Positions 7,261 to 50,021 of a stretch of DNA of 64,000 nucleotides are shown here, in pieces. The translations under genes were made by a program, and so were the position numbers. Every line of letters begins with the position of its first letter. Position 1 is the stretch's first letter. The notes under the pieces were generated by a model. The model was given only the letters and a program-made list of their open reading frames with translations. It did not search any database and was not told the DNA's origin. The DNA is from Myxococcaceae bacterium (GTDB taxonomy: Bacteria; Myxococcota; Myxococcia; Myxococcales; Myxococcaceae). The stretch is from the NCBI GenBank assembly GCA_003818285.1, contig RPRB01000006.1:2504-66503 (forward strand). Direction: 5' to 3'.

Positions 7261-7273
7261 CTGCGTGTTCCTT

Positions 7274-28332: not shown

Positions 28333-28887
28333 TTAGCTGGCGTCCGCCAGGTTGGTCCACTTGAGGATGCCGAACTTGCCGAGCGTGTCGCCCACGGTCT
28401 CGCTGACGAGCATCTCGCCCTCGAGCTCCATGTTGCCCCACTCGTCCTCCTCGAAGGCTCCGAACTCCCCGTTCGGGTTCAGGCTGACCCGGTACAGGAG
28501 CCAGTCGATCCGCGGACCGACGTCATTGGTGGCTTCGATCTTGAGCTGACCGATGATCTCGGTCTCGGCGAAGATCTCGACCTCAGGTCCGCCGACTGCG
28601 TCTTCGTCGAGGGTGCCCATGACCATCAGAGCCACGTTGTACGGCGTGAACTCCTCCATGGTGATGGCGAGGGTTCCGCCCTGCTCCAGGAGCACGCTCA
28701 GGTCCTTCTGACGAATGCCTTCGCGAGAGGTGAAGTGATCGAGCTTTTCGTTCGTCGGGGTGATGGTCGCTTCGGTGCAGTTGCCGAGGTCGGTCCAGTC
28801 TACGGCGCCGTCCTTCTTGAACGACACTTTGCCCTTGCCGATCCGATAGTTGCCGGTGTTCGGGCTGATGAGGGTTGGTTCAGGCAT
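28333..28887 (-). CDS. major tail tube protein (candidate)
   Basis: 184 aa, beta-rich, immediately upstream of the chaperone pair. Confidence 0.6.
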   Translation of the reverse strand: MPEPTLISPNTGNYRIGKGKVSFKKDGAVDWTDLGNCTEATITPTNEKLDHFTSREGIRQKDLSVLLEQGGTLAITMEEFTPYNVALMVMGTLDEDAVGGPEVEIFAETEIIGQLKIEATNDVGPRIDWLLYRVSLNPNGEFGAFEEDEWGNMELEGEMLVSETVGDTLGKFGILKWTNLADAS

Positions 28888-32296: not shown

Positions 32297-33109
32297 TCAT
32301 CTCCCCTTGTTTCGACTGACCTGCTGGCGGGGCTGGCTCAGCCCTCGAGGCGGGCTGCGAACCGGGGCTTCGCTTTTGCCTGGTCCCGGACCTTGGCCGA
32401 GCTGGACGACCTTCGGCCTTTCGCCACCACTGCCTTCGCCTTCTTGGCCGCCGTCTCGATCGCGGCCACCGCCTTGCCCGGTGGCCGGACGCCCCGGCCC
32501 TTCATGGCCAGCTTCTTCGCTGCCGCCCTGGCCTTCACCTGAGCCGCCGTCTGCTTCTTCGGTGTCCTCATCGCCATCCGTTCCGCTGTTGGCATCACTC
32601 AACTCCTCATTTTCACTGTCCTCATCCTCGTCGTCTCCGATCACGAGGCCGATCTTTTCGCGCTTCAGAACCTCAGCCGGGTCCTCCTTCTTGGGGATCG
32701 GAGCCATCAAGACCGCGTTGGCCTCGTCGACTGCACCGGCTTGGATGTGGTGAGCAGCGTTGGCCGCCCGTCGGGCCAGCTCCAGGCGCATCTCGCCGTG
32801 GTTCGGGCGCGAGCCCATGACGCCTTCGCCGATGACCCGGTTGACCACGGTCAAGATTTCGTTGTACTCGAGCTGATCGTAGTTCCGCAGAGTGTCAAGA
32901 ACCGCGATGAGCTGCGGGCTGTCCTTGTCGATGTCCGTCCCCTCGGGGACGATGACGATGTTCTTGTGGTGCTTCTTGATCCTGTCGATCGTTCGCTGGG
33001 TCAGCTCTACGTTGACCGGCGATCCGACGGGAGCCTGGCGCGGGCGACCGCGCACGTTCACGAACACGCGCGGGCCGTCGCCGAAGTTCAGGAGGGTGAC
33101 GATTGGCAT
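32297..33109 (-). CDS. hypothetical protein with acidic C-terminal tail (270 aa as open frame)
   Basis: The N-terminal 170 aa are protein-like. The tail is DDEDEDSENEELSD... The last ~85 codons overlap a higher-GC3 frame (32338..32595). Confidence 0.55.
   Translation of the reverse strand: MPIVTLLNFGDGPRVFVNVRGRPRQAPVGSPVNVELTQRTIDRIKKHHKNIVIVPEGTDIDKDSPQLIAVLDTLRNYDQLEYNEILTVVNRVIGEGVMGSRPNHGEMRLELARRAANAAHHIQAGAVDEANAVLMAPIPKKEDPAEVLKREKIGLVIGDDEDEDSENEELSDANSGTDGDEDTEEADGGSGEGQGGSEEAGHEGPGRPATGQGGGRDRDGGQEGEGSGGERPKVVQLGQGPGPGKSEAPVRSPPRGLSQPRQQVSRNKGR
32338..32595 (-). CDS. Lys/Ala-rich basic protein (85 aa), overprinted on 32297..33109
   Basis: GAGGAG lies 7 nt before the ATG at 32595, and a TGA lies just upstream in frame. 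Sequence AAQVKARAAAKKLAMKGRG ... AAKKAKAVVAKGRR. Third-position G+C is ~85% by my count, clearly higher than the overlapping frame. Confidence 0.5.
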   Translation of the reverse strand: MPTAERMAMRTPKKQTAAQVKARAAAKKLAMKGRGVRPPGKAVAAIETAAKKAKAVVAKGRRSSSSAKVRDQAKAKPRFAARLEG

Positions 33110-33194: not shown

Positions 33195-34160
33195 TCAGCT
33201 CGGCTCGTCCCCGGAGATGCCGTCCAGGTAGCGAACAGCGCCCGGACGCCGGATCTCGAGGCCGGCGACGCGGAAGATGCCGGGGATGTCGTACACCAGG
33301 GGTCCGGTCTGCCACACGGGCAGGAAGCGATGCGGCATGGGAATGTGCATCTTGAGCACAGCCGGATCGCGGCGATACGCGACCATGCGGCCCGTCCCGC
33401 CAGTGCCCGCGTCTTCCAGTCCGCGGACGGCGCGGATGATGATCGGCCGGCCGGTCTGGAAGCTCACGATGTTCTTCGACGCGACGAAGTCCAGGATCGT
33501 GAGGGTCGTGTCGGGGACGCGCTTCGACACCAGGATGGTCATGGCCTCACCCGGCAGGAGCAGCGTGTCCGCGTATTCGATCTGGGCTGAGCTGGTCCAC
33601 ATGCCAGTGAGGATGGCGTTGATGTCCGCCATGATCTCGTCGGCAGTCTTCGAGTCCCAGTCCGTCGAGCCCTCGGCGCCCTCGGCTGCCTGCACCGTGG
33701 TGATGCCAGGGTAGTCGATGATGCCGTGGAAGTTCTTGTCGCTCATGCCCCGGAGGGCAAGGTTGTCCACGAACTCCTCGTAGGCCCTGCGGGCTGCGGA
33801 GGCGCGCTCGGTGGTCAGGTTCGTGCCGGGGACCATCATGGCCTGGCCGAGCTCCTGCAGCGAGTATCGGTATCCGATGTCGGCCATCTCAACGCCCACT
33901 TCGAACTGCGAGCGTTCGACGTCTGCGATGTGGATGTCCTTCGCGAGGTGGTGGAACCATCCCGCCTTGCCGACCTTGTCGCTCGAGAAGTACGTGATCG
34001 ACTTGGCCCACTCGTTGGCTGCCGTGTCGACCGGGATGAGCGTCGGATACTGTATCTCCGGATACTGGACCTCGACGACTTGGGGTTCGATGTAAGACGT
34101 CTGCGACACCAGGAAGCCGAGGGCCTGCTGTGCCGCATCCGCCGAGTAGATATTGAACAT
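33195..34160 (-). CDS. major capsid protein (DUF2184-type)
   Basis: 321 aa. It follows the scaffold-protease and cement-like genes. Overall pattern: N-terminal ...LGFL..QTSYIE..V, C-terminal ...RVAGLEIRRPGAV. Confidence 0.8.
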   Translation of the reverse strand: MFNIYSADAAQQALGFLVSQTSYIEPQVVEVQYPEIQYPTLIPVDTAANEWAKSITYFSSDKVGKAGWFHHLAKDIHIADVERSQFEVGVEMADIGYRYSLQELGQAMMVPGTNLTTERASAARRAYEEFVDNLALRGMSDKNFHGIIDYPGITTVQAAEGAEGSTDWDSKTADEIMADINAILTGMWTSSAQIEYADTLLLPGEAMTILVSKRVPDTTLTILDFVASKNIVSFQTGRPIIIRAVRGLEDAGTGGTGRMVAYRRDPAVLKMHIPMPHRFLPVWQTGPLVYDIPGIFRVAGLEIRRPGAVRYLDGISGDEPS

Positions 34161-34818: not shown

Positions 34819-36042
34819 TCAGGCAGTTCCCTGCGGTGTCTTCCAAGCGTTCTGCATGCGGTTGTTGTAGTCGCTGTAGGACTTCTCTGCAGCCGCCCGG
34901 TCGCCCAGGACCGGCTGGCTGCCGCCGGTGAAGGCCGCCCTGGCGACATCGACTGCGCGGTTGGTGTCGACCGCCTTGACGCTTGCCGTGAGGGTGGCAA
35001 ACGACGTGGCAACCTGCTCGTCGGTCCAGCCCTTGGCGACATCCTTGAGCGCGTGGTCGACGACCTGCCGGCGGATCTCCCCGTCGGTCTTGCCGTCCAC
35101 CACCAGCTTGTCGCCGAGGATTGCAGCGGCCTTGCCCATGCAGATCGTGCGGTCGGCAACGAGCTGATCGAGCTGCTGCGGGGTCAGCTTGGCGCTGTCG
35201 AGCTGGCTCTTCAGCGTTGCGTTCTCCGCCGTTAGGGTGTCCTTGTCCTTCGACAGGGTGGTGACCTGGGCAGTCATGTCGGTGACCTGCTTGTTCAGGC
35301 TATCCGACACGCTCTTGTGCGTGGCCTCGAGCGCCTTCACCTGGTTGGCGGCGTTGTCGAGGGCGCGCTGCACGACTTGGATCGTCGTGTCGGTCATCTC
35401 GCAGGTGATGCCGTCCACGGTCATTGTGCGCAGGTTCATTTGGTCTCTCCGGGTTGGGGGTGGTTCAGGCTCAGCGTCTTCGACGCCGAATGGCAGTTCG
35501 TCCCCGACGGATAGCCTGGCTCCGCCGCGGGCCGCTTTCACGAGGGCGATGTGGTTCGCCCGGATGTTGCGTTGGATGGCGTCGTAAGCCTCGCCGGTCG
35601 GCGTGGTGCCGGACGCAACCTCGATGTCGCACGAATACCCGACGGAGAGCTGTCGCTTGCCAGCCTCGATCGCCTTGACGGCGGACGAGTCCATGAACAG
35701 CATCGGGACGCGGACGTATTCTTGATCTCGGAGGACGTCGCCGTCGCTCTGGCCGACCGCGTACTCGCTCCAGTTTTCGGAGGTGACCTCGACCTTCGGG
35801 TGGTCGTTGGTCAGGGGGCGGTGGGCGAGGGACGCCATCGCGTCCTTGTGGAAGACTTCGCTCTCAGGCCGGTAGACCCGGACGACGTCCTTGTCCGCCA
35901 GCTCGCCACCAATCTCCTTGCCGAGATAGAGTTGAATGCCGGTGCGCGAAACGCGGGGAGCAGCCGCCAGATAGCCCCCGGCCTTCTTGGACATGTGGGC
36001 GGCGTCGAAGGACAGCCGGTCGTACAGGTTCAGCTTGATCAT
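34819..36042 (-). CDS. prohead scaffold / protease-like protein (DUF2213-type)
   Basis: Internal ATG with an AAGGAGG Shine-Dalgarno. RTGIQLYLGKEIG ... VVRVYRPESEVF ... PLTNDHP ... LSVGYSC ... YDAIQRNIRANHIALV. The C-terminal half is coiled-coil. Confidence 0.8.
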   Translation of the reverse strand: MIKLNLYDRLSFDAAHMSKKAGGYLAAAPRVSRTGIQLYLGKEIGGELADKDVVRVYRPESEVFHKDAMASLAHRPLTNDHPKVEVTSENWSEYAVGQSDGDVLRDQEYVRVPMLFMDSSAVKAIEAGKRQLSVGYSCDIEVASGTTPTGEAYDAIQRNIRANHIALVKAARGGARLSVGDELPFGVEDAEPEPPPTRRDQMNLRTMTVDGITCEMTDTTIQVVQRALDNAANQVKALEATHKSVSDSLNKQVTDMTAQVTTLSKDKDTLTAENATLKSQLDSAKLTPQQLDQLVADRTICMGKAAAILGDKLVVDGKTDGEIRRQVVDHALKDVAKGWTDEQVATSFATLTASVKAVDTNRAVDVARAAFTGGSQPVLGDRAAAEKSYSDYNNRMQNAWKTPQGTA

Positions 36043-36067: not shown

Positions 36068-36802
36068 TCAGGGCCTCCAGTACCGCGAGACCCAGTAGTC
36101 TTCGCGGATGGTCTCGACCTGCCAGGGCTTCCGTCTGCCGTTGAAGAACATGATGCAGGTCCGCTTCGAGATCTCGCGGAGCTTGCGATAGTCGACCGAG
36201 TAGGAGGCCACCGTCGGATAGGTGAAGCCGTCGCACCCTTCGAGACCAACCAGGTTCATGCTCAGCCACGACTGGTCGGAGCCGAGCCACTTCTTCTTGA
36301 ACGTCTGAGCTGGGCTGGTGGCCGGGTCGAACTTGGACCAGATGAAGTCGAGGTCTCCGGCTGTGAACATCTGCAGCGAGCCGTTGAAGACCTTCGGATG
36401 GTGGGCACCCGCGCAGGCCCAGCCCATGAAGCGGAACTTCTCCGTGGACTCGATCATCGGGGTGATGTCGCGCATGATGATCGCGTCCAGGTCGATCCCC
36501 ATGATGCGGTGCCCGTCCCGGATCTTCATCTGAAACTGGGTGGCCGGATCGTACAGCTTGAGCCGCCTGTAGCACGACGGCAAATTTCTTTTTGTGGCGT
36601 TGGCCAGGTCTGCACCGTCCGACCACAAGGGATGCGTCTCGCAGGCGAGACCAGTCGGATCGTCCGTGACGCAGACGATGCGATGGGGCACCTTCACGTT
36701 GGCCTGCAGAGCCTTGACCATCGCGTTTACGTGCACAGCGGAGTAGGTCGCTCGGACTGGGTTCTTCCAGTCGGTCCACTTCCAGAGGACTATGTGCAGC
36801 AT
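36068..36802 (-). CDS. putative glycosyltransferase (GT-A-like, DxD)
   Basis: Internal ATG with a TGATG junction. Motifs RIVCVTDDP and IMGIDLDAIIMRD (DxD). Confidence 0.5.
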   Translation of the reverse strand: MLHIVLWKWTDWKNPVRATYSAVHVNAMVKALQANVKVPHRIVCVTDDPTGLACETHPLWSDGADLANATKRNLPSCYRRLKLYDPATQFQMKIRDGHRIMGIDLDAIIMRDITPMIESTEKFRFMGWACAGAHHPKVFNGSLQMFTAGDLDFIWSKFDPATSPAQTFKKKWLGSDQSWLSMNLVGLEGCDGFTYPTVASYSVDYRKLREISKRTCIMFFNGRRKPWQVETIREDYWVSRYWRP

Positions 36803-37527
36803 CAGAGGACCCGCACCCACTCGAAGCGAACAGGATTGACAGCGCGATACGGACCAGAGCCGATCTTGGCGCGGAGGACAGGGTTGCGGCGAGCGTGCCA
36901 CTGCGTGTCCTTGCGTCCCCAATCCTTGGTGTTGGCGTCGAAGATGTCATCGGCCCGGAAGACTATCGTCGAAAACGCCTTGGTCGGCATTTCGATGAGG
37001 CCGGCGCCCTTAGCGCAGCGGCGGAAGTTTCCGTCTGACCCGTAGTGCCCAGCGAAGTCTTCGTCGTACCCGCCCATCGACCAGAAGTCTTCAGCTCGCA
37101 TCAGGTAGCTGTTCGGATGCGGCCGTTCGAGCGAGGTACCGTTCGTGAGCACCTGGTTCGGCATGTAATATGTTCCCGATCGGACGTCCATCTGGAAAAT
37201 ACTCAGGAGCTGGTCCCGCGGGACCAGGTGATCCATGTCCGTCAGGAACGCCCACTCGGTCTCAACGTTCTGCATTGCCAGGTTGCGAGCCCCGTCCTGG
37301 TTCCAAGGAATGTTGGGCACCACCCGGTAGAGTTTGGTTCCTATAGGGCTTTGCTGCCCCCACTGCCAGATCGCCGTAGCGGCATCCCACCGGGGGCTCC
37401 CGTCGTCCACCAGCACGACCTTCACCCGATCCTGGAGCACCGGAGGGTAGGCTGCCCACTCGTCCAGGTGACGCTTCAGCATGTTGGGGTTGTCGTAGTA
37501 GGCCAGCACCAGGGTCAGGTCCTTCAT
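36802..37527 (-). CDS. family 2 glycosyltransferase
   Basis: LTLVLAYYDNPNML ... VKVVLVDDGS ... AFLTDMDHLV (GT2 nucleotide-sugar binding and DxD motifs). Confidence 0.8.
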   Translation of the reverse strand: MKDLTLVLAYYDNPNMLKRHLDEWAAYPPVLQDRVKVVLVDDGSPRWDAATAIWQWGQQSPIGTKLYRVVPNIPWNQDGARNLAMQNVETEWAFLTDMDHLVPRDQLLSIFQMDVRSGTYYMPNQVLTNGTSLERPHPNSYLMRAEDFWSMGGYDEDFAGHYGSDGNFRRCAKGAGLIEMPTKAFSTIVFRADDIFDANTKDWGRKDTQWHARRNPVLRAKIGSGPYRAVNPVRFEWVRVL

Positions 37528-38255
37528 GGCTTTCCCCTGCTCGGCCAGGCGTCGCCCGTCCAGTACTTCGTTGTCAGTTCAAACCTGTCCGGAGGGTATC
37601 CAAGAGACGAGTTGGCCTCCCCGAGGGTGTGGTTGACCAGGCACGGGACCCGCCAGAACATCGTCAGCCCGATCGCCTGGAAGCACGCGGAGACGATGCC
37701 GTCCACGTTCTTGTCCCAGTGCTTCGGCCCCTCCAGGTAGTTGTGGAGCTCAGCCGAGTCGAGCAGCGCATGCGCGGACGCACGCGACAGGACCAGGCAC
37801 TGGGCTCCCCACATCTTGAAGCCAATCTGCATCCCATGCGAGTGGATGCCGTCCCGGAGTCTGCTGGTGCTCTCAGCCTTCTCGCACATCTTGGACATCC
37901 GGATGGGCAGGTACAGCGAGAGGCAGCCGAACCCCTCCCAGGTCTGGATGTTGAACAGGTCGTCGCGCAGAGCCCTGTGGGAGTTCTTCGCCCACAGGAT
38001 GTCGTCCTCGCACACCATGAGGAACGGCTCCTGGGTAATTTCGACCAGGGTCCGCAGAGCCTTGAGCCAGTTGCGCAGGTTCCCCAGGAGCGGCACGTTT
38101 CTGCGAACGTACATGTTCTCGTCGAGCCGGCAGTCGACGGAGCCGTCGGAGAAGATGCGGATGTCCTGGTCGAAGCCCGCATCCCGCATCGAGGCGAGCG
38201 ACCGCTCCAGCGTCAGGACTGGCCGGGGCGCAGTGATGTAGGCGATCGCTATCAT
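37524..38255 (-). CDS. putative glycosyltransferase (GT-A-like)
   Basis: MIAIAYITAPRP N-terminal strand and FLMVCEDDILW acidic motif. Coupled to the GT2 gene. Confidence 0.5.
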   Translation of the reverse strand: MIAIAYITAPRPVLTLERSLASMRDAGFDQDIRIFSDGSVDCRLDENMYVRRNVPLLGNLRNWLKALRTLVEITQEPFLMVCEDDILWAKNSHRALRDDLFNIQTWEGFGCLSLYLPIRMSKMCEKAESTSRLRDGIHSHGMQIGFKMWGAQCLVLSRASAHALLDSAELHNYLEGPKHWDKNVDGIVSACFQAIGLTMFWRVPCLVNHTLGEANSSLGYPPDRFELTTKYWTGDAWPSRGKP

Positions 38256-38395
38256 GAGTCATCGCCAAACCGGGCCAGCAGCGTCCGCCACAGGAGCTCC
38301 CACTGGCTCCGGCTCGTCCACGAGGGCCTGTCGATCCGGCACCCCTCGAAGACGACGTAGTCCAGATAGATGTCGACCGACGGGCGATCGGTCAC
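38252..38395 (-). CDS. small coupled ORF (47 aa)
   Basis: The GTG overlaps the methyltransferase stop (GTGA) and the stop overlaps the next ATG (ATGA). High GC3. My own translation gives VTDRPSVDIYLDYVVFEGCRIDRPSW... Confidence 0.3.
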   Translation of the reverse strand: MTDRPSVDIYLDYVVFEGCRIDRPSWTSRSQWELLWRTLLARFGDDS

Positions 38396-38985
38396 AGCTG
38401 GACCCACCAGTGGGCGACAGACATGAGGTAGTCCTTGGTGGGGCGCTTCACCTCAGCCTGCACCCGATCGCCGAACGCTTCGTGGACGGCCTTGTGCACC
38501 CCAGGCCACAGGTAGTCGTCGCCGGACATGACCGCCCCATCCCTCATCAGGGGCAGGTAGTCGGCGATGTCCTGCTGCACGGCTTCGTAGGTGTGCAGCC
38601 CGTCGATCATGATGTAGTCGATGGACTTCGGCTCGAACAGGACCCGCGCGTCGTGGGAGTACAGCCGGTGGGGCATGATCACAGAGCTGACCGGCTTGGT
38701 GTTATCGTTGAAGACCTCGAGGGCATCCCTGCCCCTCAGGAGGGCAAAAAACTCGGTGTGCTTCAGATCGCCCCCGCCGTCGGTCCAGGGGTCGATGCAG
38801 TGCAGGGTGATGGGCTTGCCGGAGTTCAGGATCTCCACAGCCATGAACGCCGCCGACCGCCCCATCCACGATCCTATCTCCACGAAGGTGGAGGGTCGGT
38901 CCTGCGGGGCGCGCTGCACGGCGTCGACGTAGAGCTGGATGAACGACGCCCATCCGTGAATGCTCTTGTAAAAGTGTTCCATCAC
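38392..38985 (-). CDS. class I SAM-dependent methyltransferase
   Basis: TFVEIGSWMGRSA (motif I) and IMIDGLHTYEAV. The overall pattern resembles the sugar/O-methyltransferase-like Methyltransf_24 family. Confidence 0.75.
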   Translation of the reverse strand: MMEHFYKSIHGWASFIQLYVDAVQRAPQDRPSTFVEIGSWMGRSAAFMAVEILNSGKPITLHCIDPWTDGGGDLKHTEFFALLRGRDALEVFNDNTKPVSSVIMPHRLYSHDARVLFEPKSIDYIMIDGLHTYEAVQQDIADYLPLMRDGAVMSGDDYLWPGVHKAVHEAFGDRVQAEVKRPTKDYLMSVAHWWVQL

Positions 38986-39215
38986 TGCGGATGTCCTTTG
39001 TTCAGGTTGGGGCGAGCGAGGAGGTCGTCGGCGTCAGAGAGGCCCGCCTTGATCACTCGCCTGAGGTCGAACGGCCAGGTCAGGACGGCGAAGATGCTGG
39101 TCTGCCTGTCCTCCAGGAAGAAGCGGTTCAACGGCTCAGCCAGCAAGAGAACGTAGACCCCAGTCAAGAGATAGCACGTCACCACGCCGAGGATGAAGTA
39201 AGCTGCGTATTCCAT
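38982..39215 (-). CDS. small single-TM protein (77 aa)
   Basis: AAGGA Shine-Dalgarno. MEYAAYFILGVVTCYLLTGVYVLLLA is a hydrophobic N-terminus. Confidence 0.45.
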   Translation of the reverse strand: MEYAAYFILGVVTCYLLTGVYVLLLAEPLNRFFLEDRQTSIFAVLTWPFDLRRVIKAGLSDADDLLARPNLNKGHPQ

Positions 39216-39228
39216 CTGCATTCCTTTC

Positions 39229-40299
39229 TTACGAGTCGAAGGTGCCTTGCTCAATCTCGTTGACCAGGACCGCCCAGGCGTCCCGGCCAACCTTTCCCGT
39301 TGGCTTCCATTCACCATCTGTTCTGGCGAAGAACGCGCAGTCGACGTAGCCGCCCATCGTCCATCCGACGGTGGTCTCGAGGATGTACCAGCGAGTCTCG
39401 TCGCGAACCATGTCGACGGCCGCCCACTTCATCCGCTCGACCTCGAAGAAGCGGTCAGAGTAGTCGAGGGCGGACCGGACCTCGTCATCTGCGTCGACGA
39501 CGCTCTGGAAGTTCCGGCTGCCCGAAGCCATCGGCCTGTCCGTCCGGTTGAACCTCCGCAGGACCAGGCGCTGCCTGCCGATCCCGACGACCCGGACGTC
39601 GTGGTCGTTCTCCGGGATGAAGCGCTGCCACAAGAGGTAGCCAAGCTGGGCCAGGTCGTAGTGCATCGGGATGCCCCGGTCGCTGAACGCCGCCCTGACC
39701 TCGGCCATCGCCTCCTGGTAGCTGTTGATCATGCGGACGTTGTTCGACGAAGCCCCCTCGGCGGACTTGGAGAGAAACGGGTACGCTGGCTCGTCGTTGT
39801 TCAGATACCCCTTCGCCGCCATCGGCGTGAAGAAGGCCTTGGTCGGCGGCATCCACCGCGCCAAGTGCCTGGCCTGCTCGAGCTTGTCGTCGTACAGAAC
39901 CGACGAGCGATAGTCCGGAATGAGCGTGAGCCCGTTGTTGACGCTGAGGTTCTGCATCAGCTTCTTGTGGAGGCGGCGCAGGTTCGGATGGTGGTGCATG
40001 TGCACGAAGGCGTAGCCCCGGTCCGGCTCGACGGCAGCCTCGAACATGCGGCAGGAGATGCCCCTGCCCCCGCAGGCTTCGTGGAGCCGCTTGCCCCAGC
40101 CCTGCGGATCGTCGTAGGCCCAGACGCTCAACTCCTGTCCCGATGCTGCTCTTCCCAGGATGGCACCCCCAACAGGATTGCTGAGCCCGCGACCAGGAGG
40201 TGAGCTACGATCTCCCAGCCGAACGGAGTGGCGAGCACCGACACGCACAGGCACGTCGCCCCCGCCGACTGGGCGTCCAGCAGCATCCACCGATGCCAT
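39229..40299 (-). CDS. ATP-grasp family ligase (RimK-like), start uncertain
   Basis: FLSKSAEGASSNNVRMI (K..G.S..V), LLWQRFI, HDVRVVGIG and WYILETTVGW (E-x-N-like) follow the ATP-grasp block order. Confidence 0.6.
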   Translation of the reverse strand: MASVDAAGRPVGGGDVPVRVGARHSVRLGDRSSPPGRGLSNPVGGAILGRAASGQELSVWAYDDPQGWGKRLHEACGGRGISCRMFEAAVEPDRGYAFVHMHHHPNLRRLHKKLMQNLSVNNGLTLIPDYRSSVLYDDKLEQARHLARWMPPTKAFFTPMAAKGYLNNDEPAYPFLSKSAEGASSNNVRMINSYQEAMAEVRAAFSDRGIPMHYDLAQLGYLLWQRFIPENDHDVRVVGIGRQRLVLRRFNRTDRPMASGSRNFQSVVDADDEVRSALDYSDRFFEVERMKWAAVDMVRDETRWYILETTVGWTMGGYVDCAFFARTDGEWKPTGKVGRDAWAVLVNEIEQGTFDS

Positions 40300-40307
40300 G
40301 TTGTCAC

Positions 40308-41354
40308 TCACAGGTCCTCCGTCGTGAACCGTCGGTCGCGCGCAGGCACGAACACGCATCGGCAGTGCGGGTGCGCGGGGATCAAGCTGCGGGCAACGTT
40401 GATGCGGTAGGGTCCCTCCTCGGCGATGTCTTCGCACTCCGGGCAGACCTCGTCGTCGCCGGCCGTCAGGACGTTGACGCGCTTCAGCTTCTCGATCGCC
40501 TCCTGCGCCTTCCTGATCCTGCGGACGGTCTCGCGGTGGGGCACCGTGGTCCGGCTGACCTTCGAGCCTGCCCCCGTGTTCGGATTGAACTTCCGCTTCT
40601 TGTCCTCGAAGAACGACACAGCGTCCTGCGCAGGGCGGCGGATCTTCCTGACCTCCGGGATGATGCCGACCTCGGTGACCCCGACGGACTCGTAGGACGA
40701 CAGGCTTCCTTCGTTGAATGTCCGCATGACGATCGTGTCAGCCAGGGCGTCGATGCGGGTTCCGCCCACCTTGTCGATGCGGGAGTACATCGCCCGGAGC
40801 AGGAGGTTCGCATTCTTCTTGGACAAGATCCCGTCGGCTGCAGCCCGAACCAGGTTCTGGCTGACCGCCTCGCTGATGCCCTGCAGCTCCACAAACGCAG
40901 ACTGGACGATGGTGTCCACCCTGTCCCTGTGGTTCTCCGGCGACCTGGCGACGTTCAGATCCCGCGTGTTCCTGTCCGCGAACCGCAGCCCCTTCTCGAA
41001 GGCGCGCTCAACGTAGCCTGCCAGATACCGGCCATCGTGCTCGAGGACGTTCTGGGTCAGGGCGGAGTCGACGAACTGCTGGAAGCCCATGATCTTGGCT
41101 GGCCCAGCCGTGACCATGGCCGCGGCTGACATGCCCGAGAAGGCGGTCATGGGCTTCAGCCCGAGCGCGTCGTTGTCGATGATCTGCATCCGCAGCAGGG
41201 CGCGCAGCCGGTTCATGCGGATGGCCATGGCCGATCGCATGGCGGAGCGAATGGTCTTGGTCCCCGACGGGTCTCGGCTGGTCGGCTTGGCGTCCGACAG
41301 GTAGGTGCAGCAGGAGCACCTGTCGTGGATGACCTCGTTCTTGTACTTCAGCAT
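40308..41354 (-). CDS. Mu F-like / SPP1 gp7-like head morphogenesis protein
   Basis: C-terminal LTAGDDEVCPECEDIAEEGPY ... IPAHPHCRCVFVP is the hallmark of the Mu F family. Confidence 0.85.
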   Translation of the reverse strand: MLKYKNEVIHDRCSCCTYLSDAKPTSRDPSGTKTIRSAMRSAMAIRMNRLRALLRMQIIDNDALGLKPMTAFSGMSAAAMVTAGPAKIMGFQQFVDSALTQNVLEHDGRYLAGYVERAFEKGLRFADRNTRDLNVARSPENHRDRVDTIVQSAFVELQGISEAVSQNLVRAAADGILSKKNANLLLRAMYSRIDKVGGTRIDALADTIVMRTFNEGSLSSYESVGVTEVGIIPEVRKIRRPAQDAVSFFEDKKRKFNPNTGAGSKVSRTTVPHRETVRRIRKAQEAIEKLKRVNVLTAGDDEVCPECEDIAEEGPYRINVARSLIPAHPHCRCVFVPARDRRFTTEDL

Positions 41355-42268: not shown

Positions 42269-42496
42269 CTAGACCCACGCTGTCCCGTTCCAGAACCGGA
42301 CAGGCTTGGTGATCCACGCCACGCCGTCCCACACCTTCGACGGCTTGCTGCTCCACGACGTGTCGTTCCAGACCTTGAGCCTCGAGGCGGCTGCGGCGGT
42401 CGTCACTTCGCCGGAGAAGAAGCCGCCCGACATCGCGAAGTCCCGCGGGCCGTCGTCGACGACGTATCCGCCCGTTGCGCTGAAGCTTCGACTCAT
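42269..42496 (-). CDS. hypothetical protein (75 aa)
   Basis: Internal ATG with an ATGA junction. Repeated W..(K/T)W motifs (KVWNDTSW, KVWDGVAW, RFWNGTAW). Confidence 0.45.
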   Translation of the reverse strand: MSRSFSATGGYVVDDGPRDFAMSGGFFSGEVTTAAAASRLKVWNDTSWSSKPSKVWDGVAWITKPVRFWNGTAWV

Positions 42497-43812
42497 GATG
42501 TCACCACCGGCTTCGGGTCGATGTAGAACGTCGAGTTGTTTCGCATCGCCATCGGATAGATCGTGATCGGTCCCTTCTCCCTTGGCGTCACCGTCACAGC
42601 CATCGAGAACTTCGCGGTCAGCGCGCCGGCCCACGTGCCGTGTCCATCAGGCAGCGTAACAGGAGGGGCGAGATAGGAAACGTCCGCGGCGCTCGTGGCA
42701 CGCGAGCCGCTGACCTGACCGTCAGTGCCGAGATATTCAACGTCGATCCAGATGTCTTGGTTGGTCGGCCGCACGCCGCCCGCCCAGATGCCTTCGACCG
42801 TGACGGTGACCGGCACTCCAATCACTTCATTCCACACCGTGATGGGCAGGGCTTCGAACGGAAGCTTGTTGCGGTTGGACCCTGTCGCCAGTCGCCACGA
42901 GATCGGGAAGGTGCCATCGCTCGCTCCTCCGCTCCTGACGATGGTCGCCTCGGTGAACATGCCGCCGGCCCTGTTGTGCTTCTCAGTCCTGTAGTTGGTG
43001 TCGCCGGTATCGCATCGAATGTACGTGATCTCAAGTCCGCCGAGCGAGGCGATGATGGCGCTGTACGGGGCGCAGGGTCCGATGCGACAATCCTTGAAGA
43101 CGTAGGTGTGAGAGTTGGACGCCGCCCCAGAGATCATGGACTTGCCTGCCCCCATGACCGACAGGTCGCTCCCCTCCTGAAGCAATGTGCCGATAGCCGC
43201 GCCGGGAAGGTAGAGCGTCGTCGGTACGATGGCGCCAACGATGAACGGTTCGCCAAATCCACGAATGCTGACGCGCCCGCCCGGCGAGACGCCTTGCGAG
43301 ACGTTGCCGAAGCTGACTTGGGTTCTCTCGAGAATTGTTATCGAGCCGTTGACGCCCGGAGCAATGCGAGATCCAGTCGCCGTACTGACCAGAGCCAGCA
43401 AGCAACGAACCATGCGCCACGACGTTTGCCCTGAGCCTATGGCAATGCTTGTGACGTTGGCGCCGGTGCCGCAGTAGAACTGCACGCCGTAGCATTCGGC
43501 GACGCTTCCGGAGAGAACGAGGTTGCCGCCTAGCTGCGTTGTAATCTTGGCCGTCGTTCGAAGGTCGGCAAAGACGGGAGGAACCGAACCGCCGACGCGC
43601 AGAACGCAATAGACGTAGCACGGACTGGCTTCGGTGCCTGGCGAAGTGATGAGCGCAGCGCCGGCGTTGATCTCATTGTGGTCATCAGCAAGAAAGAACA
43701 CATCACTGATTGCCTTGCTCGTCATCGCCGCGGCGAGCGTCAGGTATGCGTTGGCCCAGTCTGCCCCTGAGGCAGCGCCCGTCGCTCCGCTCCATACGAA
43801 ATAGTTGGCCAT
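42493..43812 (-). CDS. beta-helix (pectate-lyase-like) tailspike / depolymerase candidate
   Basis: Internal ATG with a TGATG junction. 439 aa, rich in G/S/T/N/V short repeats typical of parallel beta-helices. G+C is lower than the genome average by eye. Confidence 0.55.
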   Translation of the reverse strand: MANYFVWSGATGAASGADWANAYLTLAAAMTSKAISDVFFLADDHNEINAGAALITSPGTEASPCYVYCVLRVGGSVPPVFADLRTTAKITTQLGGNLVLSGSVAECYGVQFYCGTGANVTSIAIGSGQTSWRMVRCLLALVSTATGSRIAPGVNGSITILERTQVSFGNVSQGVSPGGRVSIRGFGEPFIVGAIVPTTLYLPGAAIGTLLQEGSDLSVMGAGKSMISGAASNSHTYVFKDCRIGPCAPYSAIIASLGGLEITYIRCDTGDTNYRTEKHNRAGGMFTEATIVRSGGASDGTFPISWRLATGSNRNKLPFEALPITVWNEVIGVPVTVTVEGIWAGGVRPTNQDIWIDVEYLGTDGQVSGSRATSAADVSYLAPPVTLPDGHGTWAGALTAKFSMAVTVTPREKGPITIYPMAMRNNSTFYIDPKPVVTS

Positions 43813-44069
43813 CAGTTGGTGTCCACCCAGACGTCGTAGAGAGCAGGGTCGAGCGGAGCCATCGTGCCGACGGTCATCCTGGCGATCCTCTCCCAGTCCG
43901 CGTTCTCTCTCGCGTACAGCTTGTCGTCGATCGGAGCCTCTGGAAGTGTATTGGCTGCCGACGCTGCCTTCCATCGCGCGCCGTCCCAGATGTACTGCGG
44001 GACGCCGCCCAGAGGAGGGACGGGATAGAGCTGACCAACTGTTGGTGAGGCAGGGAAGTTGAGGGCCAT
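43812..44069 (-). CDS. small fibre-associated protein (85 aa)
   Basis: MALNFPASPTVGQLYP ... YIWDGARW resembles short fibre N-terminal modules. Confidence 0.5.
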   Translation of the reverse strand: MALNFPASPTVGQLYPVPPLGGVPQYIWDGARWKAASAANTLPEAPIDDKLYARENADWERIARMTVGTMAPLDPALYDVWVDTN

Positions 44070-44070
44070 G

Positions 44071-47000
44071 TTATCTATACTCCTTGATTATAACTCCACC
44101 ACTGCCACCACTGCCGCCAAGAACTCCAACATTTTCATTCACTGAATAGCCAGCAGAACCGCCGCCACCGGGGAATTGTCCACCGCCACCGGCCACTAGA
44201 TAATCCCCCACCTTTCCGCCAGAGCCGCCCATCGGTGCATTGCCGCCGACGCCCGGAAGCACGAACGTTGGAGTCATGCTGCCAACAGCCCACGTTCCGG
44301 GAGCGCCCGCGATGTTAAGGTCGCCGCCTGAACTCGTCCCGCCCGCGCCACCAGCGATGTTGCTAACTGCGCCACCGGCTCCACTCGTGCCGCCGCCACC
44401 ACCGCCAGCGGTCAACAAGTCTCCGAATGTCGTAGTGCCGCCAACTGCTGCGCCACCACCACCAGCGCCGATCGTCACGGTTTGCGTCGTTGGTGAATTG
44501 ATGCGCTTGCGAGCGTATCCGCCTGACCCGCCGCCGCCTCCGGTAGAGACCTGCCCCGCGGTTGTCGCGCCACCATTGCCGCCGCCGCCACCGCCGCCCC
44601 ATGCTTCCACAACGATGAAAGCAACATCGTCGCTTGACGGCGACCACTCGCCGCTTGCTGTGATGATGGTCTCGCCGATCAGCAAACCATCACCGGGCAG
44701 CACGCCCTGAATGGCGACACTCCATGCATCAGACGCCACGCGCATCGTCACGTCCTGCCAGAAATAGTTACCCTCTCCGTAATTGGTTCTAGGACAGCCC
44801 GCGCCGGAAGTCGTGTACGTCGCAAGCACGTACGTAACTTCATCTGGATACTGTGCGGCTGGCGGTGGGGTCGTCATAAAATAATTGTCGTCATCGCGGG
44901 CAATGCAAATGAAAGTACCGGCAGCAACGTTGGCTGGCACTTCAAGCGCAGCCTCCACCCATCCCTCACCGATGCTTTCATCGGTCATGACGGTGGTGCC
45001 GATAAGCACGTCGAAATCGAAGTCATAAAGAAAGAGTTGTCGCGTTGATACTGCTGACGGAGCGCCCGACCTGTAGAACCTTAGATGCGTTATCTGACAA
45101 TCCACATTCATCAAAAGGACGGTACCAAAGCGAAGGTTCGCGGCCTCGACAGTTGTCGAAGGTACAGCGGCATCCGGGAAAATGTGATGGGCTGCTCCGA
45201 GTGCACTTTCTGTATCCTTCGGGCCATACAGAGCATGACCTTCTGTGTCGATGTAGTAATCTCCATCAAGCCCAAGACTGCTGGCAGGGGGACCGACGCC
45301 GTCATGAATGATGGCTCCCGTCGCCTGTATGGCAACCGGCCACGTCTCGCCCAAAGACATGTACTGCCATTCAAGGTCGGTGCCGTAGTTGTATGGGGCC
45401 TCGTAGCCACTAGGAGGAAAGACGTCCGGGCCGTCGCCGACACCCATGCGGATGCCGAAGTGAACGGCGGCATCAGGATTGGTTGGTACCGGGGCAACGG
45501 TTTGCGCGTAAGCTAGAGCATCAAAGGAAGCGACAATCGCCAAGTGCTGATCGGCCACAACAGGAATTGGAGCGGGGAAGGCGGCGGACACCCAACCGTC
45601 AAAGCCCGCAGTCTCAACCGTCGCATTGGTTACACCAAGCAGCGTCCCCGTCGTTCCGTCGTACAGATAAAGTTGCCGCGTCGTATTTGCAGAAGTGGGG
45701 TTGCGCCGAAACTTCGCGCTGATGACCTGCCCATCAACGAGTGCGATGAACTCGTTGCCGACCACTAATGGATTTGGGTCGAACTCCCACAAGGGAGGTT
45801 CGGTCAACATGAACTCTGGGTCCAGCATCACGGCTTCGAACTTCGGGCCGTAAAGCGTGTCCGTGTCCGTATCGATGTAGTAGTCGCCGCCCTCGCCCAG
45901 CGCATCGTCGGGCAGGCCTGTGCCTGAATGAATTGTCTGGCCGCTGCCGCCGCCGCCTCCGGTTCCTGGTATGCCTTGTGGACCTTGCGGTCCCTCCGGA
46001 CCTTCAGGTCCAGCAGGACCTGCGGCACCGTCAACGCCGTCAGCTCCATCTGCACCATCAGCACCGGGCACGCCCTGGATGCCCTGAGGTCCTGCCGGGC
46101 CCACCGCTCCGTCAGCACCGGCAGGTCCTTCAGGTCCTTCAGGTCCAGCCGGTCCGGCTTCTCCGAGGGGGACCGCCACCGTCTCGACCCACTGGATGGT
46201 GTCGCCGTCGTCGTAGTTGATGAAGAGAACGCCGATCGAGCTGTCCCACCACAGCGCGCCGACGGGCGCACCGACGGGGGCGGTGTCGCTGATGATGATG
46301 ATCGAAGCGTCGCCCCCTCCCGTGCCTGGCTCACCTTGCGGACCTTCAGGACCCATCGGCCCTTCAGGTCCCATCGGTCCCACATCGCCGGTATCTCCCT
46401 TCGGACCCTGAGATCCGTCTGCTCCATCTGCTCCAGGAGGGCCTGCTACGCCGTCAGCGCCAGCAGGACCAGCAGGACCAGCAGGGCCAGCACTGCCGTC
46501 AGCACCAGCAGGACCTTGCAGTCCAGGTTCACCGTCATCTCCCTTTGGTCCTTCTGGTCCTTCTGGTCCTTCTGGTCCTGTCGCTCCGTCGATGCCCGTC
46601 GGTCCCTGGGGTCCCTCGGGTCCAGGAGCACCTGGAGCACCGGGTTCTCCTGGGTCGCCCTTCTCGCCCACGGTCCGGAGGAGGACGGTGATGGCCTGGT
46701 TGGCTGCGAACACGCCGGAGCCCGACGCGGACACGAACTCGACGGGCACCGTGAAGTAGTCTGCGAGGTTGGTGGCCGGCGCAGTCATCCGCCAGACCTG
46801 GTTGCTCAGAGCGAAGTCCCGGTCCTGGATGATGAACTCGTCGTCGGTGTTGGCGAGGGACAGGAGGACGGACAGGTCGAAGTCGTCCTGCGTGATCCAG
46901 TCGACCGACAGCATGGTGGCGGCCTGCTGGTCTGTGTTGTTCCAGCGCAGCTTGCCGGTGCCGGGGTCCGCCATCGCCACCGAACTTGTGTCGGCCCGGT

Positions 47001-47400
47001 AGTGGAAGACCGAGGTCGAAGCCCCCTGCTCCCCGGTGGCGCCAGTCTCACCCGGCGGGCCCTGGTCGGCGGCGTCGCCGAACACGGTCGACTGGGCTGG
47101 CCCCAGGGTCCGGACCCGCAGAGGAGCGACGATCGCCCCGTCGTTGTGCTGGAGGAAGACGAGGACCTGCTCCGACGGGTCGTCGTTGTACACGGTCACC
47201 AGCTCGACCGTCCGGAGGATGCCCGCCCCAGGCGAGGGCGACGCCACGACGGTGCCCCCGCCCGCGTCCGCGACGATCGTGTTGAGCCTCCCCGGCGTGA
47301 TCGTGTCGTCGATGGTGGTCTTGTCGACCCACGACGCGTGGACGCGCGCCGCCCTGTCGGTGACGACCTCCAGCGTGTCGCCCTCCTGGAGTATCAGCAT
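44071..47400 (-). CDS. collagen-like tail fibre protein (1109 aa)
   Basis: Long Gly-X-Y runs ([13 protein letters not shown]; [22 protein letters not shown]...). Two similar modules ([12 protein letters not shown].. / [12 protein letters not shown]..). Gly-rich C-terminus. Confidence 0.85.
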
Positions 47401-50021
47401 CAGGTTGCCTCATCTTCGCTGTCGTCTTCGTCCTCAGTGATCCGCTCGAACTCTTTGATGCGGCCCTTCTCGTCGTGCTTCGTGACCGTCGTGATCTCCC
47501 GCCCGCCCCTGTTGACGATGGTCACGGGGACGGTGACGTGGATCGTCTGCTCGTCCTTCGGGGCGCGCTTGCTGAGGGCGGTCGCCGCGTCCTTCTGGGT
47601 CTTGAAGTTCCCGATCTTCCCGTTCTTGTCGTCGGCCCTCCACCTCACCGCCTCGCCCCGTCCCGACGCGACCGCACCCCCTGCGCCGCCGGACCTCTGC
47701 TCGTTCGTGACGACCTGCTTGACGGTGCCCACCTTGGTGTTGCCCTTGTAGGCGTTGTAGGACTTGAGCTTGACCGGCGCCTCCTTGCCCAGGACCTTGG
47801 TCTCGCGGTTGTGGTCGGAGGCCTCGTACATGTCCAGGCCTGCGACCTGGCCGGCGAACTTGCCCTTCTCGGTGGTCTCTCCGACCTTGGGCGCAGCCGC
47901 TGCCGCCCCTCCGCCCCCGCCCGATCCGAACTGCCCGTTCTCTGCTCGCTCCTGGTTCTCGTTGTACTCGTCCAGGGCCACCTCGGGGACGTCGGTCTCG
48001 TTGTTGAAGCCCGTCATCTGGATCTCCTGGAAGACCTCGGGCCCGAGGACGATCTCGCCCCGGTAGGGCTCCATCTCGTCGATCTGCTCAGGCCCGTTGT
48101 AGGTGATCGTGACGTGCGGGTTGTAGTCCTCGTAGTCGTACGAGCAGCCCTGGTGCTTCAAGGAGGAGTGGCGCCAGGACAGGTCGGAGTTGCCGAAGGC
48201 GAGGACGACAGCCTTGCCGAACCTCTCGACGATGCGGGGTCCGCCGGGGACGACGCGGATGTGCCCCTCCAGGTCCTGGCCCCAGGCCTCGCCCATCTTG
48301 ATCCAGTCGACCGCCTCCTTCGAGTACATGATCGTGACGTGCATCTCGGCCGGGGTGACCGTGGACTTGAAGCCCTGCGAGGCCGCCCAGTCGATGATGG
48401 CCTGCGCGTTCAGCACCCTGCGGTAGACGTAGAGGGGCTTCGGGGTCGCGTCGGCGAGGGCGTCCCGGACGGCGGCGTTGCCCGACGGGGTCCGCATCCT
48501 GTCCCTGCCCTTGATCCTGCGGCGCCGCTGGGCAGCCCGGAAGTCGTTGGCCGCCCTCTTGGCCGGGTCCAGGTTGCTGTTGGCGGGCTCGGGCAGATCC
48601 GCGTCTGGGTCCTCGGGGTCCACCTCGGCGTTCGGGTCAGCGTTCGGATCGACCACGGGCTCAGGTTCTGCGCGCAGACCCTCCTCGTGGTCTGGGTCGT
48701 CGAACTCCTCGATGATCTGCTCGATGCCTGGGTAGGTTCCGTCCTCGATGAGCTGCGCCTCCCTGGCCTTCTTGAGCACCACCGGGTCCAGGATCGCGGC
48801 ATCCACGTCCACCTTGAACGTGTCGGCCTTCTTCTTCTCCAGGTCAGCCTTCTGCTCCGGCGTCATCTGCCAGAGGGAGTTCCACACGTAGAAGATCTCC
48901 TCGGGCTTGGAGCCGAGGGCGGACCGGATCAAGACTTCGTCCAGGCGCCAGAGCACCGGGGAGTCGTCGTTCTTCTGCTTCGAGGAGACCGAGTCGTAGT
49001 AGTTCCTGGTGTCGCTCTCGCCCGTCGCGCTCATGCCCGCGGGGGACTGGCCGAAGAAGCGGGTCGCCGGGATGTCGGCTGCGCCGCAGACCATCAGGAA
49101 GTACATCTGCAGGATCTCGGGCAGGGACGCGAACGAGGCCACCTGCCTCTGCCACTCCTCCTCCTTGTCGATCAGGAGCATGGAGTGCACGCCCTTGATG
49201 ATGTTGGCGAGGCCGAACCGCTCGAGCAGGTTCCGCTCGTAGGTCCTGGATGAGATGTTCAGCGTCAGCCCTGGGATCTTGATGATGTCGATCTTCGACT
49301 CCGCCACGAGCTGAGCCACCGACGCAGTCACCAGGCCGCAGGACTTGATGGCGTCGGCGACGTTCAGCAGGACGGAGTCGCCCCAGGGCTGCTTGGTCGT
49401 CAGGACGTCCTGTCTCGGCATCCCGACGAAGGGGACGACGCGGCTCGGGTGGAAGCGGACCAGGGTGCCGTTGAACAGGGAGTGGCGCTCGTAGTAGGAG
49501 GGCTCACCGTACCAGGGCGAGGTGATGTCGTCGATCATGGGGCCAGGCGACACGTCCCAGCGGCTCACCGGGTGCAGGAACTCCAGGTCTCCGACCCTGA
49601 CCGCCTCGATGTCCACCGGGGTCTCGTTGGATGCGCCCTTGATGCCCATGACGATGCCGGCGCCCCCGTAGAGCCGAGCCTTCTGCTTGGCCACCTTCAT
49701 CTTCTGCTGCAGGCCAAGGCGCTGCTCCTCCGCCTCGATCGCCGTGATCTCCTCCGGGTCGCCGGCCTGCCAGGACCGCCACTCCCTGGTGGCGTCCTCC
49801 GCCGGAATGTCGATGAGCTTCCGGGCGATCCAGTCGCCGCGGTAGGCCGCGTCGGCCTGCGCCTGGTCCATGTCCGGCATGACCCAGTTGACGCCGGTCA
49901 TCTTGTCCTTGGCCGTGCCGAGGCCCGTCGCCAGGTTCTCCAGGCTGTCCCGCGCAGACTTCTGGCTCGGTGGGGGCTTGGATGCCCGACGGGTTGGTGC
50001 GGAAGCTGCTCTCTTAGCCAT
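47400..50021 (-). CDS. portal protein (DUF1073-type) with C-terminal 2H-phosphoesterase-like domain
   Basis: N-terminal [16 protein letters not shown] and ~470 aa of portal-like sequence. Residues ~527-667 carry two H-V-T-I motifs 75 aa apart (MHVTIMY, PHVTITY). A long charged tail follows. Confidence 0.85.

Follow-up and report, generated by a model that had tools for sequence, protein, structure and literature searches.

Why would a phage lodge a run of ligase, methyltransferase and glycosyltransferase genes among the genes that build its head? The question is posed by a 64,000-nucleotide stretch of DNA (hereafter the window), positions 2,504 to 66,503 of contig RPRB01000006.1 in GenBank assembly GCA_003818285.1, an assembly binned as Myxococcaceae. 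The window is high-GC (~64%) phage DNA with nearly all genes on the minus strand, from an uncultured phage known only from metagenomes. Between a MuF-like head morphogenesis gene and a DUF2213 protease/scaffold gene it carries a tightly packed minus-strand run of eight open reading frames (ORFs), which include an ATP-grasp ligase, a methyltransferase and three glycosyltransferases named here GT_A, GT_B and GT_C. We propose that this block is probably a cassette for virion glycosylation, directed at the C-terminal tips of the capsid protein and the major tail protein. We favor this reading because mycobacteriophage Corndog has family-level counterparts of three of its enzymes, because those counterparts occupy the same genomic position, and because the C-termini of the predicted targets co-vary with the glycosyltransferases.

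An enzyme block within the head operon

The block and its two boundary genes, in order of transcription, are as follows.

40308..41354, minus strand: MuF-like head morphogenesis gene (phrog_758, E 4.5e-15), the upstream boundary of the slot
40128..40307, minus strand: orf59, a 59-aa hydrophobic ORF that abuts the MuF stop and whose own stop overlaps the TTG start of the ATP-grasp gene
39229..40131, minus strand: ATP-grasp ligase, RimK/LysX/ArgX-like, 300 aa, TTG start
38982..39221, minus strand: TM79, a 79-aa single-pass membrane peptide with an AAAGGA ribosome-binding site and an ATG start
38392..38985, minus strand: class I S-adenosylmethionine (SAM) methyltransferase (MT) of the Methyltransf_24 family (Pfam PF13578, E 1.5e-18)
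38252..38395, minus strand: small47, a 47-aa ORF of doubtful significance with a coding-type GC content at third codon positions (GC3) of 0.88
37524..38255, minus strand: GT_A, a GT25-like GT-A glycosyltransferase, remote homologue of Corndog gp38
36802..37527, minus strand: GT_B, a GT2-family inverting glycosyltransferase (Pfam PF00535, 25.8 bits against a cutoff of 23.3)
36068..36802, minus strand: GT_C, a GT8/glycogenin-like retaining GT-A glycosyltransferase
34819..36042, minus strand: DUF2213 head maturation protease/scaffold (Pfam PF09979, E 5.6e-51; phrog_530, E 1.7e-87), the downstream boundary of the slot

The genes of the block interlock. ATGA-type overlaps join small47 to GT_A and GT_A to GT_B, a TGATG joins GT_B to GT_C, and a stop overlaps or abuts the next start at the MuF/orf59, orf59/ATP-grasp, TM79/MT and MT/small47 junctions. 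The only gaps are 7 nt between ATP-grasp and TM79 and 25 nt, including an AAGGAGG site, ahead of the protease gene. Because no promoter- or terminator-like signal rose above chance inside the block, we take the cassette to be co-transcribed with the head genes.

These overlapping or near-overlapping junctions agree with the initial annotation, made from the letters of the window, which had described translationally coupled genes between the MuF-like and scaffold-protease genes. The enzymes it named also held up: an ATP-grasp ligase, a single-transmembrane peptide, a class I SAM methyltransferase, and three GT-A-like glycosyltransferases of which one belongs to GT2. Its count of six genes falls short of the eight ORFs, it had missed orf59, and its ATP-grasp start at 40299 lay too far upstream. 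We place the start at the TTG at 40131, since homologues (n=99, ~300 aa) align from 'LSVWAYDD' and the 5' 168 nt (56 codons) of the original call have a GC3 of 0.53 in that frame versus 0.81 in the frame of orf59. Nor, in this lineage, are head operons as a rule free of interruption at this point: the MuF-to-protease slot holds ten small ORFs in the related Aminobacter phage Erebus and four in Rhizobium phage RHph_N17. This slot is a cargo hot spot.

Capsid and tail C-termini track the glycosyltransferases

If the cassette modifies virions, its substrates should be sought among the structural proteins, of which two are central here.

33195..34160, minus strand: major capsid protein (phrog_264, E 1e-87)
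28333..28887, minus strand: major tail protein (phrog_807, E 9e-28)

The window capsid continues past a conserved ...RYxDGI with the residues SGDEPS (codons 33198-33215), and in Erebus and RHph_N17, relatives that have no cassette of any kind, the capsid stops at ...RYxDGI. The C-termini read ..RYLDGISGDEPS in the capsid and ..WTNLADAS in the major tail protein.

To place these tips in a wider sample, we drew capsid homologues, each with 10 kb of flanking sequence, from contigs of viral and metagenome origin and used profile hidden Markov models to score the enzymes encoded upstream, counting a capsid as GT_C-negative only where at least 4 kb of upstream sequence was visible. A C-terminal extension of 5-8 residues was found in 30/30 distinct capsids with GT_C versus 8/47 without it (Fisher 2e-14, relatedness ignored). 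The extensions beside GT_C mostly end in Ser. On a neighbour-joining tree of capsids with the tail columns left out, the combination of glycosyltransferase and tail appears in at least three separate clades, and two loci nested in the main positive clade, L009 and L010, have lost both the glycosyltransferases and the capsid tail. Two of the eight extension-bearing capsids without GT_C have other enzymes in the slot: at L062 a Methyltransf_24/rhamnosyl-O-methyltransferase-like enzyme with a second methyltransferase and ORFs of unknown function, and at L069 two FkbM methyltransferases with a GT9 enzyme.

Not only the presence of a tail but its type follows the enzymes. Cassettes with MT, GT_A, GT_B and GT_C in series (hereafter MT-A-B-C) go with D-x-x-S tails. 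Those arranged C-B-C or B-C, with two GT_C paralogues, go with Tyr-containing tails (..DYE, ..EYQ, ..NYVS, ..DYAS). From sequence, this pattern suggests that one enzyme set is specific for Ser and another for Tyr.

The major tail protein parallels the capsid. It ends in Ser in 13/14 GT_C-positive phages, the remaining one ending in Thr, and in 0/5 GT_C-negative phages. The loss at L009 is visible here too, where the protein ends ..NVAPGP as against ..NVAPGS in its sister L043. The association yields a simple rule for predicting targets, namely capsid and tail subunits with a short C-terminal extension whose last residues are Ser or Tyr-x. The validated substrates of mycobacteriophages Corndog and Che8 fit it too.

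A further protein of the window has a similar end. The 151-aa protein encoded 3' of the tape measure gene (24459-24914, minus strand) ends ..YELDDDPS, resembling the capsid tail. We considered it as a general third substrate and dropped the idea, as its relatives end ..LEEV and have no such tail; it could be a further substrate in the window phage alone.

Counterparts in Corndog and other viruses

Phage glycosylation of capsid and tail C-termini by a cassette of O-methyltransferase and glycosyltransferase genes is already known. In cluster O mycobacteriophages, of which Corndog is one, the interval from the portal gene to the capsid protease gene encodes an O-methyltransferase, a putative GlcNAc-transferase and two glycosyltransferases (PMC4351075), and an O-methyltransferase with three tandem glycosyltransferases 5' of the capsid protease has been described for the cluster (PMC4351075, PMC11600133). 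The initial annotation therefore overstated the case in calling the enzyme combination unknown. In PMC12619734, Freeman et al. 2023 are cited for mycobacteriophage glycans at the C-termini of capsid and tail subunits, and PMC12363180 names Corndog gp38 as essential for capsid glycosylation. Che8 gp110 belongs to the same virion glycosylation system as Corndog gp35-gp38.

Profile comparison connects the window enzymes to this system. The GT_A family profile aligns with gp38 over 138 columns (hhalign 92.6%, E 4.6e-7), and the alignment includes the DxD motif (CEDDI versus LEDDA) and the PxLVDH motif (PCLVDH versus PSLVDH). Gp38 itself matches Pfam GT25. GT_B aligns with the GT2-like gp37 (hhalign 87.5%, E 3.6e-6), and gp35 matches TylF and Methyltransf_24, the latter being the family of the window MT. 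By these sequence comparisons, three of the four Corndog enzymes, their order relative to the protease gene and their operon position are matched at family level. GT_C was tried as the counterpart of the fourth, gp36, and rejected for want of homology.

The resemblance extends to architecture and substrates. As in Corndog gp35-gp38, a methyltransferase gene precedes three tandem glycosyltransferase genes, with the portal/MuF genes on one side and the gene for the capsid maturation protease on the other. As in Corndog and Che8, Ser is the last residue of both the capsid and the major tail protein: the Corndog substrates gp41 and gp49 end ..VGS and ..KGDS, and the Che8 capsid and tail proteins end ..KTGS and ..SDGS. 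The two systems also differ. The window phage belongs to an unrelated lineage with an Erebus/Kleczkowskavirus/Pam3-like capsid, its glycosyltransferases stand in a different order, its third transferase is the GT8-like GT_C, and it adds a RimK/LysX-like ATP-grasp ligase and small membrane ORFs. Homology to Corndog is remote, with no tblastn matches, and whereas Corndog glycosylation has been validated experimentally, the window is known from its genes alone.

A more distant analogy comes from eukaryotic viruses. Chlorovirus PBCV-1 encodes A064R, a protein with two glycosyltransferase domains and a methyltransferase. There, as we propose for the window, glycosyltransferases encoded by the virus work in the cytoplasm with a sugar O-methyltransferase to furnish the major capsid protein with a methylated glycan. 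PBCV-1 differs in being a eukaryotic giant virus with multidomain enzymes and N-linked glycans on internal Asn residues.

Against this background, novelty lies in four elements: this phage lineage, the glycogenin-like GT_C in the role of shared component, its frequent pairing with a RimK/LysX-like ligase on different phage backbones, and the C-terminal tail rule. Within the literature we searched, virion glycosylation by phage enzymes has been demonstrated only in mycobacteriophages, where it shields particles from antibodies. The cassette suggests that a widespread environmental lineage of 55-80 kb phages, whose hosts are probably proteobacterial, uses the same strategy, and its enzymes recur in lambda-like and HK97-like phages. 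A short tail together with its enzymes could serve as a tag for glyco-engineering phage particles.

Methyltransferase and glycosyltransferase identities

How secure are the individual enzyme assignments? The MT gene lies directly 5' of the glycosyltransferase genes in at least 13 related loci; a sequence search of the protein against the PDB returned nothing useful. GT_B is backed, beyond its Pfam match, by a profile match to chondroitin synthase (E 9e-11). GT_A was the weakest of the enzyme calls, with matches to phrog_2835 (E 0.007) and, by profile at the DxD region, to heparosan synthase (E 9e-4), until the comparison with Corndog settled its GT25-like identity at the level of sequence families.

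GT_C is best described by its predicted structure. Foldseek searches with its AlphaFold2 model, which has a predicted local distance difference test score (pLDDT) of 92, recovered glycogenin, LgtC and the ABO transferases GTA/GTB (E ~1e-8, TM-score ~0.6, identity ~12%). Like the GT8 enzymes glycogenin and LgtC, it has a GT-A fold, a DxD motif and a C-terminal G-x-x-K-P-W motif; the residues D104-x-D106 and G222/K225/P226/W227 are invariant in its family. Unlike them, it has no match to any Pfam family at E <= 0.1, Glyco_transf_8 included, its profile reaches glycogenin sequences only at E 0.3, and GT6 enzymes score almost as high in structure. Because of the missing Pfam match and the weak glycogenin profile score, we call GT_C GT8-like on the strength of its model and do not count it as a GT8 member. 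Glycogenin glycosylates a protein hydroxyl, that of Tyr, and the Tyr-containing capsid tails that accompany sister cassettes recall this acceptor.

The three glycosyltransferases are not recent paralogues, since hhalign comparison of GT_A with GT_B and with GT_C gave no signal.

The ATP-grasp ligase

The remaining enzyme is an addition to the Corndog set and calls for separate treatment. As a single sequence it matched no Pfam model. Among its relatives (n=31), nine match Pfam RimK and seven ATP-grasp_3, and the family profile finds E. coli RimK in the PDB (E 6e-5). Its AlphaFold2 model (pLDDT 95) gives ArgX, LysX and RimK as top Foldseek matches (TM-score 0.70-0.75, E 1e-15 to 1e-12); viral ATP-grasp proteins in BFVD match the structure less well than these three, and the graspetide enzyme PsnB is also among the matches at a TM-score of ~0.57. 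K122 and D240 are invariant and E252 nearly so, and all three align with RimK residues. The ligase thus resembles RimK, LysX and ArgX in structure, in sequence profile and in keeping the ATP-binding Lys and the Asp/Glu Mg ligands. It differs from them in its low identity (13-18%), in a conserved Thr that replaces the Asn of the E-x-N motif (the third Mg ligand), in the lack of any S6 or LysW context, and in having a glycosyltransferase as genomic partner.

That partnership is widespread. Of 32 evaluable unique loci, each representing a distinct ligase sequence with sufficient flank, 25 have GT_C no more than 5 kb from the ligase, often directly adjacent; these comprise 13/14 loci of the window lineage and 12/18 on unrelated backbones. 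The loci that have no GT_C near the ligase mostly hold its most distant homologues.

What might such an enzyme contribute? The C-terminal Glu of LysW is the site at which ArgX and LysX attach amino acids, and RimK adds Glu to the C-terminus of S6. The closest structural relatives of the window ligase therefore act on protein C-termini and not on sugars. By analogy, the enzyme would activate a carboxylate, perhaps the C-terminal or an acidic group of the tail or else a uronic acid in the glycan, and couple it to an amine or amino acid. Amino-acid ligation to an exposed acidic C-terminal tail fits, because relatives of this fold ligate onto protein C-terminal carboxylates; amidation of a uronic acid in the glycan is just as conceivable. 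One feature of the tails may reflect the enzyme: position -3 of the capsid tail is E or N in 7/7 ligase-positive phages and Q or S in 6/7 ligase-negative ones, with L127 breaking the rule. As a readout of ATP-grasp presence, this sequence pattern is a weak lead.

We can also imagine, although we think it unlikely, that ATP-grasp and GT_C move together as one unit of two enzymes and have in this way reached virion operons of unrelated phages, with the ligase extending or amide-capping a C-terminal carboxylate or acidic residue of capsid and tail proteins alongside O-glycosylation of the terminal Ser or Tyr. If true, virion surfaces would bear a combined peptide-ligation and glycosylation mark of a kind not described for any virus. 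The toolkit of virion modification would gain a glycogenin-like transferase and a RimK/LysX-like ligase, which together could make a new protein C-terminal modification.

A model of virion tip modification and points that weigh against it

The glycan attachment, priming enzyme, sugar chemistry and ATP-grasp step that we infer can be combined as follows. The cassette would be expressed late. Once translated, the capsid (...DGI-SGDEPS) and tail protein (...NLADAS) would expose short C-terminal tips, and the soluble phage glycosyltransferases would recognise these tips in the cytoplasm. Either GT_C or GT_A, the gp38 homologue, would start an O-linked glycan on the terminal Ser; for the sister cassettes, the acceptor would be a Tyr close to the end. 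GT_B and the remaining transferase would extend the glycan, and the Methyltransf_24 enzyme would O-methylate a sugar; we assign these two steps because of the family membership of the enzymes and the Corndog parallel. The ligase would act on the tip or on the glycan as outlined above. The initial annotation had suggested that late enzymes give virion proteins a glycan that is methylated and perhaps aminoacylated. Its glycosylation and methylation now have comparative backing in the Corndog counterparts, the shared position and the co-varying tails; aminoacylation of the glycan would depart from the closest structural relatives of the ATP-grasp ligase, which act on protein C-termini.

Several observations weigh against glycosylation of virion tips by the full enzyme set. 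Six GT_C-negative phages have Ser/Thr/Pro-rich tails and no recognised enzyme nearby, and the tail/GT_C association is partly phylogenetic, amounting to about four independent gain or loss events. In a replicate on lambda-like and HK97-like backbones, where single-protein queries yielded only 3-4 relatives each, the lambda-like capsid C-termini do not set phages with the ATP-grasp/GT_C pair apart from those that lack it. The likeness of MT to gp35 is at family level only, and no homology could be detected between GT_C and any of the Corndog enzymes. The link of the ATP-grasp ligase to glycosylation is indirect: several otherwise complete MT-A-B-C cassettes do without it, and L009 and L010 keep it with neither a glycosyltransferase nor a capsid tail. 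The phage may, moreover, make hydroxymethyl-pyrimidine DNA. Finally, glycosylation itself is deduced from the genes of an uncultured phage.

Other targets and other roles

The initial annotation had listed DNA bases and host polysaccharide as alternative targets, and the co-variation data now count against both. Could the glycosyltransferases act on hydroxymethylated bases of the phage DNA as protection against restriction, with MT and the ligase elaborating the sugar? Phage glycosyltransferases commonly modify DNA, as cited in PMC12619734, and the window encodes a dCMP deaminase, a MazG-like enzyme, a C5-DNA-methylase-like gene and a 285-aa protein with a weak match to CMP 5-hydroxymethylase (E 0.016). 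No Tet_JBP match appeared among the scanned ORFs, and the cassette lies 26 kb from these nucleotide genes, translationally coupled to head genes instead. The ATP-grasp/GT_C pair also recurs in lambda-like and HK97-like structural operons that have no hydroxymethylase in view, GT_A is homologous to a capsid-glycosylating enzyme, and a DNA target leaves the tracking of glycosyltransferases by capsid and tail tips unexplained, all of which makes it very unlikely. The same co-variation speaks against alteration of host surface polysaccharide (lipopolysaccharide or exopolysaccharide) that would block superinfection or keep progeny from sticking to debris, a role that we judge, if anything, less likely still. 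GT2, GT8 and GT25 are families typical of lipopolysaccharide and exopolysaccharide synthesis, two small membrane ORFs lie in the cassette, and the slot is a site for varied cargo. All three glycosyltransferases, on the other hand, are small, soluble and free of membrane or lipid-carrier domains, the cassette ORFs include no flippase, polymerase or Gtr-type match, and conservation of the membrane ORFs does not follow that of the enzymes.

For the ligase, the question is whether it belongs to the glycosylation pathway at all. It could be a separate module that merely shares the hot spot, for example one that adds amino acids to a host or phage protein, as has been proposed for the modification of host proteins by phage R2K and RimK-type ligases (PMC4431377, PMC7824862). 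The separability noted above, with L009 and L010 retaining the ligase on its own and several MT-A-B-C cassettes lacking it, speaks for such independence. Its proximity to GT_C in most loci, on unrelated backbones too, speaks against it, as does L036, where the ligase sits between GT_C-like genes and a gene for a nucleoside diphosphate (NDP)-sugar epimerase. We regard a separate module as possible, if doubtful. Hardly credible, by comparison, is a peptide product in which the ATP-grasp enzyme and an adjacent small ORF form a graspetide-type ribosomally synthesised and post-translationally modified peptide, tailored by the glycosyltransferases and MT. RimK-like ATP-grasp enzymes do make graspetides, PsnB is among the structural matches and small ORFs flank the ligase. 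Yet ArgX, LysX and RimK are clearly better matches than PsnB, the conserved partner of the ligase is GT_C and not a peptide, and no small ORF is conserved with it (orf59 and small47 have no matches, and TM79 is found only at L003 and L004).

The nucleotide genes mentioned above belong to a larger minus-strand cluster (2144-13308) with an Amidoligase_2 protein, two GGACT/AIG2-like cyclotransferases, an asparagine-synthase/GATase, the C5 DNA-methylase-like gene, the 285-aa protein, MazG and dCMP deaminase. Judged by its gene content, this cluster may be a DNA hypermodification or peptide-tagging pathway.

Conservation and spread of the cassette

How widely does glycosylation of this kind occur, if the virion reading is right? 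Within the phage clade of the window (~55-80 kb), relatives show the order MuF, ATP-grasp, variable small ORFs, MT, GT_A, GT_B, GT_C, protease, cement and capsid. The parts are separable: many phages have ATP-grasp and GT_C only, others have MT-A-B-C and no ligase, an enzyme that many cassettes can do without, and L009 and L010 have the ligase alone. GT_C is a component of every cassette of this kind. Outside the clade, the ATP-grasp/GT_C pair lies between head-tail joining and tail genes in lambda-like heads (L006, L028, L036) and between capsid and portal genes in HK97-like phages (L008, L035); at L036 the sugar gene beside the ligase is an NDP-sugar epimerase/dehydratase.

In two lambda-like sets, L006/L117 and L028/L118, the ATP-grasp/GT_C pair is flanked by genes for head-tail joining and tail proteins that end ..QEGDS, ..DTGDS, ..EEGS and ..VVGDS, and such ends are absent from L119, a relative that has no ATP-grasp/GT_C pair. 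From these sequences, the targets may differ between phage backbones.

Sequenced phage genomes contain little that is close. A megablast search of the region against 50,697 phage genomes gave no match, nor did tblastn searches of the same genomes with ATP-grasp or GT_A, and a search for a cultured host with the ligase returned metagenome-assembled genomes only. The only cultured viruses with tblastn matches to GT_B and GT_C were Tetraselmis viridis virus S20/SI1, at ~32% identity. These siphophages resemble the window phage in having a glycosyltransferase/methyltransferase cassette of ~5.5 kb, placed between the capsid and head-closure genes. Unlike the window cassette, it has neither ATP-grasp nor GT_A and contains extra GT-D and sialyltransferase-like genes, and the capsid ends ...STIVTG, not in Ser.

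Small ORFs

Of the three small ORFs, TM79 contains a single strong transmembrane segment (residues 9-27, Kyte-Doolittle 2.35), and its conservation is limited to the closest relatives, L003 and L004. The hydrophobic orf59 has a Kyte-Doolittle maximum of 1.79. Neither orf59 nor small47 has a homologue in related loci (30 or more ligase loci), and in relatives of the window MT is joined directly to GT_A with no small47 between them. The 47-aa ORF listed by the initial annotation thus has coding-type composition in its favor and no support from related loci.

Genomic context

Further head genes lie on either side of the cassette.

52212->50014, minus strand: terminase
50021->47400, minus strand: portal with a fused Acb1 domain
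34728->34240, minus strand: cement protein

Head-completion and tail genes, including those for the major tail and tape measure proteins, lie 3' of the capsid gene.

The portal protein (47400-50021, minus strand) matches Phage_portal_3 (E 2.5e-99) and carries at its C-terminus (residues 529-668, E 4e-36) a domain of Acb1, an enzyme directed against the cyclic-oligonucleotide-based antiphage signalling system (CBASS). The same fusion is found at L009, and it suggests that an anti-defence enzyme forms part of the portal or is delivered along with it. L009 also has an ADP-ribosyl-toxin domain fused to its MuF gene.

Between the portal and MuF genes (42493-47400, minus strand) lie a 1109-aa collagen-like fibre protein with G-x-y repeats and a 493-aa protein, an unusual site for a fibre. 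We considered whether GT25-type activity might glycosylate this collagen-like fibre and set the idea aside, as no hydroxylase was seen and co-variation with the capsid and tail tips explains the data better. Just 3' of the capsid gene, the gene for a 270-aa protein (32297-33109, minus strand) encodes a C-terminal half that is long, acidic, rich in Gly and Ser and of low complexity; the protein matched no family, and its relatives are variable.

A DUF1643 protein (61354-62043, minus strand, E 1.9e-43) adjoins the gene for a family A DNA polymerase. Finally, a GcrA-like cell-cycle regulator (52655-53374, minus strand) matches its Pfam family at E 5.7e-5, just under the curated cutoff. This sequence match hints at an alphaproteobacterial host, as opposed to the Myxococcaceae binning of the assembly, and the host of the phage is probably proteobacterial.

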